Positions 20,019 to 26,290 of a stretch of 64,000 nt of DNA are shown here, one piece after another. Position numbers and translations under genes: made by a program. The DNA comes from Escherichia coli (GTDB lineage: Bacteria; Pseudomonadota; Gammaproteobacteria; Enterobacterales; Enterobacteriaceae), in assembly GCF_003790525.1 (NCBI RefSeq), contig NZ_CP033635.1; one strand, written 5' to 3'. A model generated the notes under the pieces. It had not been told where the DNA came from. It saw nothing but the letters and a program-made list of their open reading frames with translations, and ran no database searches. How positions within the stretch are numbered: the stretch's first letter is position 1; each line of letters starts with the position of its first letter.

Positions 20019-20975
20019 ATGAACCCGATTGCAGTTACCCTACTCACCGGTTTTTTAGGCGCGGGCAAAACCACCCTGCTGCGCCATATTCTTAATGAAC
20101 AGCACGGCTACAAAATTGCCGTGATTGAAAACGAATTCGGCGAAGTCTCCGTTGATGATCAACTGATTGGCGATCGCGCCACGCAGATCAAAACGCTGAC
20201 CAACGGCTGCATCTGTTGTTCGCGCTCCAACGAGCTGGAGGACGCGCTACTCGACCTGCTGGATAATCTCGACAAGGGCAATATTCAGTTCGACCGTCTG
20301 GTCATTGAATGCACAGGCATGGCCGATCCCGGCCCGATTATTCAGACCTTTTTCTCCCATGAGATTTTATGCCAGCGTTACCTGCTGGACGGCGTGATTG
20401 CGCTGGTGGATGCGGTACATGCCGATGAGCAGATGAACCAGTTCACCATCGCCCAGTCACAGGTTGGCTACGCCGACCGTATTCTGCTGACTAAAACCGA
20501 CGTCGCAGGTGAAGCAGAAAAACTGCGCGAACGCCTGGCACGCATCAACGCCCGCGCACCGGTCTACACCGTCACCCACGGCGACATCGACCTGGGCCTG
20601 TTGTTCAACACCAACGGTTTTATGCTGGAAGAAAACGTCGTCAGCACCAAACCGCGTTTCCACTTTATCGCGGATAAACAAAACGATATTTCGTCGATTG
20701 TGGTGGAACTGGATTACCCGGTAGATATCAGCGAAGTTTCCCGCGTGATGGAAAACCTGCTGCTGGAATCGGCGGATAAACTGCTGCGTTACAAAGGGAT
20801 GCTGTGGATTGACGGCGAACCTAACCGCCTGCTGTTCCAGGGTGTCCAGCGCCTCTACAGCGCCGACTGGGACAGGCCATGGGGCGATGAAAAACCGCAT
20901 AGCACGATGGTGTTTATCGGGATTCAGCTGCCGGAGGAAGAGATTCGGGCGGCGTTTGCGGGGTTAAGGAAGTAA
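20019..20975 (+). CDS. yjiA: Zn-associated P-loop GTPase YjiA (CobW/COG0523 family)
   Basis: Start at MNPIAVTLLTGFLGAGKTTLL (P-loop), 318 aa; CxCC motif NGCICCS. Confidence 0.9.
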   Translation: MNPIAVTLLTGFLGAGKTTLLRHILNEQHGYKIAVIENEFGEVSVDDQLIGDRATQIKTLTNGCICCSRSNELEDALLDLLDNLDKGNIQFDRLVIECTGMADPGPIIQTFFSHEILCQRYLLDGVIALVDAVHADEQMNQFTIAQSQVGYADRILLTKTDVAGEAEKLRERLARINARAPVYTVTHGDIDLGLLFNTNGFMLEENVVSTKPRFHFIADKQNDISSIVVELDYPVDISEVSRVMENLLLESADKLLRYKGMLWIDGEPNRLLFQGVQRLYSADWDRPWGDEKPHSTMVFIGIQLPEEEIRAAFAGLRK

Positions 20976-21305
20976 TACCCTTAACCTACTAATACGAAGC
21001 GGACGAGGATAAAACCCTATCATTTTCCGTTCGCTTCACTATTTTATTTCGTTCCAACACCCATTAAAATTAAAAATATAATTCTGCCATAATTTCCTGA
21101 ACACAGATGTAATTACATTGCCACCACTCATACTTTTAAAAATAATTTATATGATAGACGTCCTATTGAGGCGTAATAGATGTATTAATTTCCAAATACG
21201 CAAACATTCTGGTACAGTCCAAAAAAGAAAAATCATCAACCAAAACAATCAGCAAATAAATTAACAACGATTGAATCATAATCAACACGAATACAAGAGA
21301 TTAAC

Positions 21306-23156
21306 ATGGCAACAATAATCCCAACAATCAGTAGCTGCAACGATAAAATTACTGCCGGAGAGAAAAGGCTGGCAAGAATTCTGGAAAGAGGACTAGGCGA
21401 AGAGTGCTGCTGTTGGTATGACATTCCCACGGGTGATAAGCATCTTCACCCAGATTTTATGATACTTTCGCCAGAAAAAGGCATTATTTTTCTCGAGGTA
21501 AAAGATTGGTTTATTACAAAAATAAAAAAAGCCAACAAGTCTAATGTGTTGTATGAGACACAAAATGGTATTCAATCTTTAAAGAATCCGATAGAACAAG
21601 TTAGGCGATATGCTTTCGAAGCTGTAAACCAGTTAAAAAAAGACCCCCTATTGTGCCAACAGGATGATCGTTACAATGGCAATCTTCTTTTCCCCTATGG
21701 ATATGGCGTCTACTTTAGTAATATTACACGAGAAGCATTAAATAATAAATTTACTCAAGAAGAGCTGCTCGGGATCTTCCCATCAGATCTCATCATCTGC
21801 AAAGACGAAATAAATGAATTCATGTCAAAAGAGGATGTTTCATCCAAAATACATTCGTTGATTAAATATGACTTCAAATGTCATGCTACACAAGAACAGT
21901 TGAACAGGATTAGATGGCACTTATACCCCGATGTCAGAATAGAAAGGGAAAAGAGAAGTAAAAACCGTGATGAATTTAGTGTCGATGCACCAACCATCAT
22001 TTCTATCCTGGATACTCAACAGGAACAACTTGCCAGAAGTATGAGAGATGGCCACCGGATCATTCATGGTGTTGCAGGTTCAGGGAAGACATTGATCCTC
22101 TATCATCGCTGTCAGGAATTAGCGAAAAAAAATGACAGCGAAAAGCCAATTCTTGTCATTTGCTACAATATTACTTTAGCCAAAAAACTTCGGTCGATGT
22201 TCATCAATCATCCCTTTGCAGAGAAAATAAAGGTTAAAAATTTTCATGCTTGGTGTTTCCAACAAATTAAAGAAAACAAGATCACTATTCCAGAAGGGGA
22301 TAATATTTTTGAAAATATGGAGCTAGCGTTGACTGATGGTTTCAAGACAGGAAAAATAAAACCAGAACAATACAGCGCTGTATTAATTGATGAAGGACAT
22401 GATTTTAAGCCAGAATGGTTAAAAATCCTGGCAAAAATGACTGACTCTCAGGACGAGAATTTGCTATTCCTTTATGATGATGCTCAGTCAATTTACCAAA
22501 AAAAGAAAGCATTAGACTTTACACTGTCCAGCGTAGATATTAAAGCGACAGGACGCACAACCATTCTTAATATAAATTATAGAAACACACAGCAAATCCT
22601 ACACTTTGCCAGTTGCATTGCATTTAATTATCTTAATAGCCATATCGATAGTTCTTTAACCTATCATAAACCTGCTGCGGGAGGAATGAATGGCGATTAT
22701 CCCAACCTTGAACATTTCGACACACAGGACGAAGAAATAGCACGAGCAGTCGAATGGATTACAGAGCAAAATGAACAAGGGATTCCGTGGTCTGAAATTG
22801 CTATACTAAGTCCATCAACTCACACCCTTTCTAACTCTCTAAGCTCTGTACTTGAATCGAAAAACATCCCCTTTAATCTTATTGTAAGCTCTGCAGATAA
22901 AAAGTCCTGGACGCCAGAACAAGAGCGTATTTCTGTTATGCCATTACCCAGCAGTAAAGGACTTGAGTTTCACTCAGTTGTCATTATTGATGCAGCGAGA
23001 ACACGGGATAATAGCGATGATTTGAGTGAGGATATAAAGAGACTCTATGTAGGTTTTACCCGAGCACGTTGCAATCTCTTGGTAACCTTGCACGGTGAAG
23101 GTGCGTTAAATGAGCATCTACTAAAAACCTATGAGCAAAGCCCACAATATATGTAA
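21306..23156 (+). CDS. NERD-domain nuclease fused to SF1 (UvrD-like) helicase; candidate single-gene anti-phage protein (Nhi-like architecture)
   Basis: 616 aa; NERD/PD-(D/E)xK-like N-terminus (HPDFMILSPEKGIIFLEVKDW); Walker A GVAGSGKT; Walker B VLIDEGHDF; UvrD_C-like RLYVGFTRARCNLLV; sits in an AT-rich block in the slot K-12 uses for mrr-hsdRMS. Confidence 0.75.
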   Translation: MATIIPTISSCNDKITAGEKRLARILERGLGEECCCWYDIPTGDKHLHPDFMILSPEKGIIFLEVKDWFITKIKKANKSNVLYETQNGIQSLKNPIEQVRRYAFEAVNQLKKDPLLCQQDDRYNGNLLFPYGYGVYFSNITREALNNKFTQEELLGIFPSDLIICKDEINEFMSKEDVSSKIHSLIKYDFKCHATQEQLNRIRWHLYPDVRIEREKRSKNRDEFSVDAPTIISILDTQQEQLARSMRDGHRIIHGVAGSGKTLILYHRCQELAKKNDSEKPILVICYNITLAKKLRSMFINHPFAEKIKVKNFHAWCFQQIKENKITIPEGDNIFENMELALTDGFKTGKIKPEQYSAVLIDEGHDFKPEWLKILAKMTDSQDENLLFLYDDAQSIYQKKKALDFTLSSVDIKATGRTTILNINYRNTQQILHFASCIAFNYLNSHIDSSLTYHKPAAGGMNGDYPNLEHFDTQDEEIARAVEWITEQNEQGIPWSEIAILSPSTHTLSNSLSSVLESKNIPFNLIVSSADKKSWTPEQERISVMPLPSSKGLEFHSVVIIDAARTRDNSDDLSEDIKRLYVGFTRARCNLLVTLHGEGALNEHLLKTYEQSPQYM

Positions 23157-23173
23157 AAATGATAAATTATCTC

Positions 23174-23205
23174 CATAACGCCCGGTAACGCTGTACCGGG
23201 CGTTA
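23174..23205 (+). terminator. Perfect 13-bp stem-loop downstream of NERD-helicase gene
   Basis: ataacgcccggta-acgctg-taccgggcgttat, 18 nt after stop; no strong T-run, so may be a structural element rather than a classic terminator. Confidence 0.5.
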
Positions 23206-23288
23206 TGAATGTATATCTAAGATATTAGTCACGCCTGATAGCCGCTACCAAAAACGCCATCATCTCCCTCTCATCTTTGCTGTGATAA

Positions 23289-23594
23289 AAGCGTACCATT
23301 TTGCTGTTAAATTCCAGCGCTTTAGCCACTGGAATTAACAAGTTCAAACTTCCGACAACGAAGTTCCAGTTATTACAAAAATTACTGGCAAAAGAGATGA
23401 AAAGCGTAGTTGACAACACATCGAAATATACTGACTGGAGTAAACGCGATGATATTAAAGCGAAACTGAAAGTTGAACTTATTCTGCTTCTACACAAGCA
23501 TAAGTTCCCGCCAGTAGCGAATGATGATGTTTATATGGGTGTGCTGGCACAGGCAGAGAATTTTAAAGAACATCATATGAGTGCTTTAAATTAA
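23289..23594 (+). pseudogene. Frame-closed 3' gene fragment, possibly the C-terminal domain of a type I restriction HsdR subunit
   Basis: Open frame begins straight after a TAA with no ATG or SD (track ORF 23301..23594 opens on TTG); helical, K/E-rich sequence ...VDNTSKYTDWSKRDDIKAKLKVELILLLHKHKFPPV... that I associate with HsdR C-termini (recollection, not verified). Confidence 0.3.
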
Positions 23595-23602
23595 TTATGA
23601 AG

Positions 23603-23628
23603 GCCGGATACACTTTGTTATCCGGCCA
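23603..23628 (+). terminator. Hairpin after the gene fragment
   Basis: ggccggata-cactttgt-tatccggcc, 9-bp stem, 8 nt after the fragment stop. Confidence 0.45.
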
Positions 23629-23713
23629 TTGTGAATTAACGTTAATTTCTCTTCCAGATATTTCCAGTAACGCTTTTATTATTTTCTATTTTTAGCTGGA
23701 CTTTCCCTGTATT

Positions 23714-23733
23714 TACTGATGATATGTCCAGGT
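23714..23733 (+). promoter_or_regulatory. Candidate LexA (SOS) box upstream of symE
   Basis: tactgatgatatgtccaggt contains CTG-N10-CAG about 80 nt upstream of symE ATG; K-12 symE is SOS-inducible. Confidence 0.45.
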
Positions 23734-23769
23734 ATTTAGCGCGGTGCGAATGTGCGCCAACACACCCGC

Positions 23770-23850
23770 ACCGCTCATCACAATCACTATTTATGGAGAA
23801 TAGTAATCATGACTGACACGCATTCTATTGCACAACCGTTCGAAGCAGAA
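23770..23850 (-). ncRNA. symR: SymR antisense sRNA (antitoxin) opposite the symE 5' end; position approximate
   Basis: Inferred from K-12 arrangement, where SymR is encoded antisense across the symE start; not independently visible in sequence. Confidence 0.4.
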
Positions 23851-24150
23851 GTCTCCCCGGCAAATAACCGTCAATTAACCGTGAGTTATGCGAGTCGCTA
23901 CCCGGATTACAGCCGTATTCCCGCCATCACCCTGAAAGGTCAGTGGCTGGAAACCGCCGGTTTTGCTACCGGCACGGCGGTAGATGTCAAAGTGATGGAA
24001 GGCTGTATTGTCCTCACCGCCCAACCACCCACCGCCGAAGAGAGCGAACTGATGCAGTCACTGCGCCAGGTGTGCAAGCTGTCAGCGCGTAAACAAAAGC
24101 AGGTGCGGGAATTTATTGGGGTGATTGCCGGTAAACAGAAAGTCGCCTGA
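23809..24150 (+). CDS. symE: SOS-induced toxin SymE (AbrB/SpoVT-fold endoribonuclease-like)
   Basis: In-frame ATG within ORF 23752..24150 gives [30 protein letters not shown]..., 113 aa, recognised as SymE. Confidence 0.9.
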
Positions 24151-24158
24151 TACATTGA

Positions 24159-24182
24159 CCCGGTAGCGCCAGTGCTACCGGG
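24159..24182. terminator. Bidirectional hairpin between convergent symE and GmrSD-like gene
   Basis: cccggtagc-gccagt-gctaccggg, 9-bp stem, in the 46-bp convergent gap. Confidence 0.6.
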
Positions 24183-24196
24183 TATTATTCGCCGTG

Positions 24197-26290
24197 TTAG
24201 ACCAACGCGCTCTCCATCTGTTTTTCAAATGCCTGACGAATTAATCCCATAACGTAAGGAAGTTGTGCGAGGTCGCTGAAACCAATTTCCACATCACCAT
24301 TGCCCCAGCGCCCAACATTTGTCACATCTTTGGCAATACCTTTCGGATCGACCAGTTCATGAAACTGCATATTAAGCGACAATCGCAGTCGGCTTTTTTG
24401 CGGCACAACATCAACAAAATTCGTTTCCGCTTTAAACGCAATATAGAGCTTCAATACTTCCTGCGTGATCCCTGCGTCCAGGCGCATAACTTCATCGCGA
24501 AGATGATCAAATAACACCCGGCTATGCGAACCATCAGCAAGAAAAGGATAATCACTCAGGCTATAACTGGTTTTGTTTTCAGGCTGCGCCCGATAAACAG
24601 CTAAAACCTCTTCAGGAAGAGCAGGCGCTTGCCAGACCTGAACCGCGAGATCGGCCAGACGATCGGCACGGGCGCGAATGGCGGCTTCATCCCATTTTTC
24701 GCACTGTCCAAGACCGATATTCAAATAAAGCGGGCTATGCTTAAAGCCGTCTTCAATATCGCGTTTTTCCGCGAAAGGTCTGTCACTGTAGCGGGAGTTA
24801 TAGCGCGTTAATGTGAGATTCCCCAACGTATGTAACAGTTCTTTATGCACACGCTGCCAGTCGCTTCCCAGCTCTTCACGCCATTTAGCCGACAAATTTT
24901 CGTTCTGCGGCATAATATGCTCAATCGTAAACTCTTCCACGCGCTCTCTGCGTTTATCGTTTTCCAGTCGTCGTAACCAGTAGCTGCGACTGCGGAAGTT
25001 ATAGAGATCGCGAACTTTTAATTCCCGTTTAAATTCATCATCGTTGGGGAAACGACGATATGAAGGCAGATTCAGAAAATGTACCTGAATACTTTCCAGA
25101 TATTTTTCTTTAATAATGACCTTATAAAAGGTAGCAAACGTCTTGTTAAGAGAATTTGTCGGAATCGCACATACTGCACGGCGGAAAACATAAGATTCAA
25201 TTAAACGAATTATGCTCAGGAAATCTTCGTGAGGCAAATCGCCATTTTTATAGTCATGATAAAGCGCCAGTAAGAAAGGATACGCCACATCGACCTTTAA
25301 CTCGCGCAAATCCTGAAAAGCCGTAGCAAGCGATTTGTCACTTTCTTTACCCAATGCCATTGCACAGTAATACTCCGCGTAGATGTGAATATCTTCAACC
25401 AGGTGATCCACGCCTTTTTCAGCAACACTCTGGCTGCGGGCATGGAGTTTAAATGCCTCATAGACTTCATCTGTACGAGGGATCTCCCCCGTTTTTACCG
25501 TCAGATAATGACGCATAAAGCTGTCAAAATATTCGCTGTAACCTTGCTGACCAAAAGCGACTTCCATTGGACGCCAGTGATCTTCATACAACCGGGTTTG
25601 ATGCTCTGGTTCGAGACCCATCAGAATAAAATTGCGCACCAGATCGGCCTGACTTAACGCCTTACCGGTAGAGTTCATACTTTCAAAAATCAGTTGCGGA
25701 TTATCCTGACCACGATTAAGCGCCACATCGACAATTAATAATTTTGCTAACCCACGACATAAGGGGATCAAGTCATCACCGAGTTTGGCAATTTGCTCAT
25801 CAAAGAAAGTAAAGTTTTCCATTATTCGATGGGAATAGTTTTCTGGCATTGGTCTTTGTTTTATTAACGCCAGCAAACTGTCTTTATCAGTCTCGGTCAG
25901 CAGTAATTTAAATCCTTTCTCGCCGGACTCATAAGGATTGAGTAAATAATAATTACGCAATTTCATTGCTGAAAAGCCATCAAAAACTTCGTCTTCGCCA
26001 AGATGACGCGATAAAGCCTCAATCAGCAACATTGCGGTCGTCAGCCTTTGTTGACCATCAATGACCAGTAACGGAGAAATACCAGAAACCTGATACAACC
26101 CCTGCTCAATATAAACAACCGAACCGATAAAATGCGCTGATATATCGTCACGCTTTCCGGCACGAATGATGTCGTCCCAAAGTTGCCGACATTGTTGTTC
26201 TGTCCATGAATAAGTCCGTTGATAAATGGGAATCACAAACTGCTGCGAACGTTTTAAAAAATCGAGTAGGCGGGCTTCTGTAGCTTTCAT
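24197..26290 (-). CDS. DUF262 (ParB-like NTPase) + DUF1524 (His-Me finger nuclease) protein: GmrSD-family type IV restriction-type enzyme
   Basis: 697 aa; DUF262 signature LVIDGQQRLTT near N-terminus; C-terminal HNH-like block EHIMPQN ... LHTLGNLTL; occupies the mcrBC side of the immigration control region. Confidence 0.8.
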   Translation of the reverse strand: MKATEARLLDFLKRSQQFVIPIYQRTYSWTEQQCRQLWDDIIRAGKRDDISAHFIGSVVYIEQGLYQVSGISPLLVIDGQQRLTTAMLLIEALSRHLGEDEVFDGFSAMKLRNYYLLNPYESGEKGFKLLLTETDKDSLLALIKQRPMPENYSHRIMENFTFFDEQIAKLGDDLIPLCRGLAKLLIVDVALNRGQDNPQLIFESMNSTGKALSQADLVRNFILMGLEPEHQTRLYEDHWRPMEVAFGQQGYSEYFDSFMRHYLTVKTGEIPRTDEVYEAFKLHARSQSVAEKGVDHLVEDIHIYAEYYCAMALGKESDKSLATAFQDLRELKVDVAYPFLLALYHDYKNGDLPHEDFLSIIRLIESYVFRRAVCAIPTNSLNKTFATFYKVIIKEKYLESIQVHFLNLPSYRRFPNDDEFKRELKVRDLYNFRSRSYWLRRLENDKRRERVEEFTIEHIMPQNENLSAKWREELGSDWQRVHKELLHTLGNLTLTRYNSRYSDRPFAEKRDIEDGFKHSPLYLNIGLGQCEKWDEAAIRARADRLADLAVQVWQAPALPEEVLAVYRAQPENKTSYSLSDYPFLADGSHSRVLFDHLRDEVMRLDAGITQEVLKLYIAFKAETNFVDVVPQKSRLRLSLNMQFHELVDPKGIAKDVTNVGRWGNGDVEIGFSDLAQLPYVMGLIRQAFEKQMESALV

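Follow-up and report, generated by a model that had tools for sequence, protein, structure and literature searches.

An hsdR 3'-end remnant of a lost type I restriction-modification system upstream of symE in the Escherichia coli immigration control region

An open reading frame of about one hundred codons at positions 23289-23594 of a 64,000-nucleotide stretch of Escherichia coli DNA (contig NZ_CP033635.1 of assembly GCF_003790525.1; hereafter the window) raises the question of whether it represents a small gene, the remains of a larger one or a chance frame, and which events left it directly upstream of symE. The initial annotation had read it as a possible remnant of the C-terminal part of HsdR, which would have been left behind when the arrival of a NERD-helicase gene removed most of a type I restriction-modification system. 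Over a 651-nt query spanning the feature, the identity with E. coli SMS-3-5 (NC_010498.1) is 100%, and the order of the genes in RefSeq is btsT - yjiX - yjiA - '3'-5' exonuclease' (616 aa) - partial pseudogene - symE - GmrSD - yjiS - yjiR - rpn - mdtM - yjiN. The segment between the anchors yjiA and yjiN is the immigration control region (ICR), a hypervariable defence island that houses alternative hsd genes of type IA, IB or ID, type IV enzymes and the toxin-antitoxin modules brnAT, symE/symR and rpn (PMC12707154, PMC3874165, PMC2481252). The SMS-3-5 locus shares its anchors, yjiA at the left end and symE, yjiS and yjiN at the right, with other ICRs, including the 'empty' one of E. coli C, but differs from them in that its type I system is reduced to a scar of 88 codons and that a NERD-UvrD helicase cassette occupies its left part.

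The Pfam model PF11867 (T1RH-like_C, formerly DUF3387), which had been proposed as a check, matches the 101-aa translation with E=1.1e-16, residues 32-94 being aligned with positions 267-328 of the 329 of the model, and a second, weak match places residues 6-41 on model positions 151-185; the NCBIfam scan of the same translation returned no family. At the DNA level, 23384-23594 shares 97.6-99% identity with the final 69 codons of an intact, syntenic hsdR gene encoding a protein of 1087 aa, and the alignments with two loci carrying this gene, those of strains JJ1887/ST131 (L004) and Z0117EC0056 (L002), run from 23384 onward, the latter covering the hsdR 3' end plus symE (23384-24126, 97.6% DNA identity over 743 nt). 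The last 210 nt together with the intergenic tail are 95-99% identical to the intact hsdR loci of both strains, and about 1000 complete E. coli genomes carry the same DNA as the 3' end of an intact gene for a 'type I restriction endonuclease subunit R'. In RefSeq/PGAP, 23385-23594 is listed as a partial pseudogene ('type I restriction enzyme endonuclease domain-containing protein; incomplete; missing N-terminus'). The domain match and the identity to the syntenic intact gene bear out the assignment to the C-terminus of HsdR; neither of the objections named beforehand, a match to an unrelated gene or an intact small gene with its own start in other strains, was borne out. It is therefore very probable that 23289-23594 is a non-functional pseudogene scar of the hsdR 3' end of a type I restriction-modification system. 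As such the remnant is already known, being an annotated pseudogene and an ordinary scar in a well-studied variable locus.

The intact counterpart lies in the order yjiA - brnA(T) - Mrr-like restriction endonuclease - hsdM - hsdS - hsdR - symE in JJ1887/ST131 and Z0117EC0056, and in these two loci and about 1000 other genomes the intact hsdR occupies the same position directly upstream of symE as the remnant does in SMS-3-5. The encoded HsdR (WP_000058884.1 / WP_001534836.1) scores 1717 bits against PADLOC REase_I and carries the Pfam domains HSDR_N (5-234), SWI2_SNF2 (297-527), T1R_D3-like (585-729) and T1RH-like_C (748-1080). The remnant retains 88 of the 1087 codons (about 8%; 19 + 69), whereas codons 1-901 and 921-1018 are missing, and with them the N-terminal PD-(D/E)xK nuclease domain (HSDR_N), both SF2 motor domains (SWI2_SNF2/ResIII and T1R_D3-like), neither of which was found in the 101-aa translation, and most of T1RH-like_C. 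The partners hsdM and hsdS are also missing between yjiA (end at 20975) and symE, where the NERD-helicase gene is the only one present. The PDB sequence search returned a single solved relative of the intact HsdR, that of EcoR124I (type IC; PDB 2W00), which shares the overall architecture (phmmer E ~2e-24, in the motor region) but belongs to a different family, and its match covers residues 142-510, not the C-terminal part surviving here.

As to the family of the lost system, the type IA locus examined (L003) has the gene order hsdR-M-S and an HsdR of 1170 aa, with homology to the window starting only at 23677, and the locus of the EcoAI/type IB family (L009) encodes an HsdR of 810 aa, with homology from 23679. 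The type I families are defined by subunit complementation or antibody cross-reaction within a family (PMC2481252, PMC12707154), and in a survey covering 9,040 genomes of enterobacteria the type I systems of the ICR were of types IA, IB and ID only (PMC12707154). Since the intact relative is neither IA nor IB, the lost system was most probably of type ID, the family of StySBLI, EcoR9I and KpnAI, an assignment made by elimination. A different arrangement was observed in E. coli EcPF15 and 729_141114_1_15 (L005/L010), whose ICR reads yjiA - brnA - fic - GmrSD (699 aa) - hsdM (781 aa, long) - hsdS - hsdR (1087 aa) and lacks symE. It was considered as the ancestral arrangement and rejected, its hsdR having no DNA match to the remnant; the system may add another type I lineage to the three usually listed for the ICR.

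The segments of the scar (Table 1) were resolved by pairwise BLAST and by comparison of the register with the intact hsdR of L004 and L002, whereby the breakpoints, as had been suggested from the outset, could be mapped to the base through alignment with strains carrying the intact genes. An earlier view that everything upstream of 23384 is unrelated to hsdR, based on an alignment to the last 500 nt only, was abandoned when a more sensitive blastn search turned up another stretch of hsdR and one of fic there. The fic piece shares 90.2% identity with the 3' end of fic in L003 (102 nt) and 84.5% with that in L005/L010 (97 nt), and its peptide IPVAKALEFNSKMVRFYHSKDEREMMAFLV matches IPAAKALEFNSKMVRFYHSKDATEMMAFLV of intact Fic. 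This remnant, which separates the NERD-helicase gene from what is left of hsdR, was previously unannotated, and RefSeq has no feature at its place. The antisense of fic accounts for the first 14 codons of the open frame and for the TGA TAA bounding it on the 5' side, so that of the fragment claimed initially 23332-23594 is indeed derived from hsdR and 23289-23331 is not.

Table 1. Features of the scar and its surroundings, with positions in the window.
Feature	Position	Strand	Remarks
NERD + UvrD-like helicase gene, 616 aa	21306..23156	+	Pfam NERD, AAA_19, UvrD_C; a neighbour outside the remnant
GC-rich hairpin, 16-bp stem	23172..23209	-	between the convergent stops of the NERD gene and the fic remnant
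fic 3' remnant, last ~35 codons	23225..23335	-	1-nt deletion near the end alters the C-terminus
Reported open frame	23289..23594	+	composite: antisense fic remnant + hsdR piece A + hsdR piece B
GAAT microhomology, fic/hsdR deletion junction	23332..23335		fic homology to 23335, hsdR from 23332
hsdR piece A, codons 902-920 of 1087	23332..23388	+	corresponds to L004 9001-9057
Junction of the in-frame 297-bp (99-codon) deletion	23384..23394		imperfect direct repeat ACTGGnAAAAG
hsdR piece B, codons 1019-1087 plus stop	23384..23594	+	includes the RefSeq pseudogene 23385-23594
Intergenic tail specific to the parent hsdR family	23595..23676		homology to type IA/IB loci starts only at 23677-23679
symR antitoxin RNA	23738..23814	-	Rfam RF01809, 92.8 bits, E=4.4e-18; intact
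symE CDS	23809-24150	+	from the annotation; 5' end overlapped by symR

The region of piece A is 92.5-94.7% identical to L004 9001-9067, to L002 11652-11718 and to about 1000 genomes, and 4 of its 57 nt differ from the intact hsdR, all four altering an amino acid (GINKFKLPTTKFQLLQKLL versus RINKIKLPATKIQLLQKLL). Piece A is followed by the 297-bp deletion, for which the repeat sites of the intact gene read ACTGGAAAAAGCGAT and ACTGGCAAAAGAGAT, the window holding one hybrid copy; the same deletion accounts for the jump of the PF11867 alignment from model position ~185 to 267, the weak match at 151-185 corresponding to piece A. Piece B differs from L002 in 2 of 210 nt and from L004 in 5 of 210. Further downstream, the sequence common to all ICR variants starts at about 23677, just upstream of symR/symE. 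Direct reading of the tail revealed a 9-bp inverted repeat GGCCGGATA/TATCCGGCC at ~23604-23629, which was not called by the terminator scan because it has no T-run. On the other side of the scar, the hairpin at 23172-23209 was scored as a terminator on the minus strand only; it may be the orphaned terminator of the minus-strand fic or may act bidirectionally.

The scar is best explained by the following history. The ancestral system would have had the order hsdM-hsdS-hsdR and an HsdR of 1087 aa, and was probably of type ID. At the 4-nt GAAT, an illegitimate deletion in a progenitor of SMS-3-5 would have joined the inside of the minus-strand fic to codon 902 of hsdR and removed all that lay between, hsdM, hsdS and the HsdR nuclease and motor domains included. 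A further deletion, of 297 bp and running between the imperfect ACTGGnAAAAG repeats, would have taken out codons 921-1018 in frame, leaving 19 + 69 codons, the native stop and the intergenic tail upstream of symE/symR. What is directly shown are the junctions, the homologies and the absence of the domains; the succession of the events is an inference. The 3' end may have survived because deletions reaching symE/symR would be harmful, or because it would offer right-flank homology for cassette exchange.

The distribution was assessed in 5426 complete E. coli genomes and in 8 further loci (L011-L018) with an identical NERD protein. The NERD gene was found in 100 of the 5426 genomes, EPEC E2348/69 included, and always in this slot of the ICR; the complete scar accompanies it in all 100 as well as in the 8 further loci. 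Among the 5426 genomes there was no intermediate, whether with NERD and an intact fic or hsdR or with the fic-hsdR junction without the 297-bp deletion. The block NERD - fic' - 'hsdR - symE keeps an invariant spacing in L011-L018, while the NERD-bearing loci were observed to vary downstream of symE (GmrSD present or absent, yjiR intact or truncated, one transposase (IS) insertion), and the block thus constitutes the conserved unit. In the DETEC-C31 haplotype (L006), whose locus shares 94-97% identity with the window, the fic/hsdR junction and the 297-bp deletion are the same and the A-site base at 23389 is kept, and an extra T (+1) at 23379 shifts pieces A and B into different frames. The occurrence of the same scar with a +1 frameshift in this sister lineage indicates that it is under neutral decay, and the amino acid-altering character of all the substitutions in piece A is counted as evidence of decay too. 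Independent decay of this hsdR family was seen at other loci as well: SX48 (L007) carries an hsdM'-'hsdR fusion pseudogene in which 223 codons are kept and fused to the start of hsdM, and 29A20CPO013 (L008) has, in another island, an IS911-truncated 'DUF3387 domain-containing protein' pseudogene with an internal stop. These differ from the SMS-3-5 scar in breakpoints and mechanisms, and neither has the 297-bp internal deletion.

The constant company of the NERD gene and the remnant, in 100 of 100 genomes and 8 of 8 further loci, would be expected if the incoming NERD-helicase cassette had overwritten the hsd genes in a single replacement and left the hsdR tail at its right border. Such a replacement would also suit the low GC content of the whole block 20976-23650 (34-42% versus 50-56% in the flanks) and the absence, among the 5426 complete genomes, of an E. 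coli intermediate with NERD plus intact hsdR or fic. However, a fic 3' remnant of 111 nt separates the cassette from the hsdR pieces, and the GAAT junction joins fic to hsdR, not NERD to hsdR. Homology to other E. coli breaks off exactly at the yjiA stop (20975/20976) and starts again with the 3' end of fic (23225-23235), which places the cassette in the slot between yjiA and fic, and in other strains this slot independently holds brnA or only a short spacer. Since the hsd deletion has its left breakpoint within fic and not at the border of the cassette, the scars do not tie the loss of hsd to the arrival of NERD, and the ICR arrangement needs at least three junction-forming events, namely the NERD cassette, the fic truncation and the internal deletion in hsdR. 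A single replacement is accordingly an unlikely explanation, and the claim of hsd loss upon NERD-helicase arrival finds no support as one event; of the deletion or replacement claimed with it, the removal of hsdM, hsdS and most of hsdR stands. The NERD-helicase itself matches the PADLOC candidate defence gene C3a187 'NERD+UvrD' with E=1.3e-140. PGAP gives it the name '3'-5' exonuclease', and in strain THO-010 the gene bears an IS1 insertion.

Retention of the hsdR tail by selection, either as a helical peptide of 65-97 aa that would titrate type I methyltransferase cores or as a 3' end/hairpin that would insulate symE/symR, is very improbable. If true, the peptide would provide restriction alleviation by titration of the methyltransferase cores, and the insulator would shield the SOS-controlled symE/symR from NERD-helicase read-through. 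The Rfam scan of 20900-24400 matched symR alone, with no known RNA overlapping the hsdR remnant.

Also very improbable is a real small gene, with a product of 97 aa from TTG 23301 or 65 aa from ATG 23397, whose helical peptide from the HsdR C-terminus would have acquired a new role, such as that of a decoy binding type I methyltransferase cores. The HsdR C-terminal region would, by analogy with EcoR124I, make contact with the methyltransferase, which would suit such a role. The translation comprises 101 codons plus stop, in agreement with the ~100 aa estimated at first, and of the 10 loci examined 9 keep the frame open; these 9 are, however, at least 99% identical and therefore do not provide independent evidence. 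Some gene callers predict an ORF of 62-97 aa here, but the automatic calls disagree (97, 65 or 62 aa, or no call), and PGAP calls a pseudogene. The frame begins directly after TGA TAA at 23283-23288, and TTG 23301 is its only start in the mechanical ORF list, with no Shine-Dalgarno-like motif upstream of it on direct reading; the sole in-frame ATG, at 23397, is abutted by AAGAG with zero spacing. As had been remarked initially, there is no plausible start, a properly spaced Shine-Dalgarno motif being absent at both codons. Furthermore, the promoter/terminator scan, which yielded no more sites than shuffled sequences did, gave no plus-strand promoter-like site in 23100-23850. Against a small gene stand also the N-terminal 14 codons, which are antisense fic, the break of the frame by the +1 insertion in the L006 lineage and the piece A substitutions, every one of them non-synonymous. 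The length of the open frame is better regarded as an accident, since the internal deletion was in frame and reading goes on through the antisense of fic until TGA TAA. A chance ORF in AT-rich intergenic DNA unrelated to hsdR, to which the GC content of 37-42%, at which open frames of 100 codons are not rare, and the lack of an NCBIfam match might point, is refuted by the Pfam match and by the nucleotide identity to the intact hsdR in syntenic position, and retains practically no probability.

Read as a pseudogene scar, the remnant records a past type I system of the hsdM-S-R kind in the ICR of the SMS-3-5 / E2348/69 type, lost by short-microhomology deletions, and gives an example of defence-island turnover in which the present arrangement was assembled through at least three separate junctions. 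The remnant is also a warning that an extended open frame within a scar of this kind can be an in-frame accident. It reveals no new system or mechanism and matters little beyond book-keeping.

Beyond symE, the GmrSD-type ORF at 24197-26290 on the minus strand was observed to form one uninterrupted frame of 697 aa (DUF262 + DUF1524 + DUF5655) that matches PADLOC 'Orf5' end to end. In RefSeq it is split into a CDS of 388 aa and a pseudogene 'DUF262, missing C-terminus', as it is in the O157-like locus L009, and this split looks like an annotation artefact; under the original locus tag EcSMS35_4888 it has been given as a GmrSD homolog of the ICR (PMC4437046).
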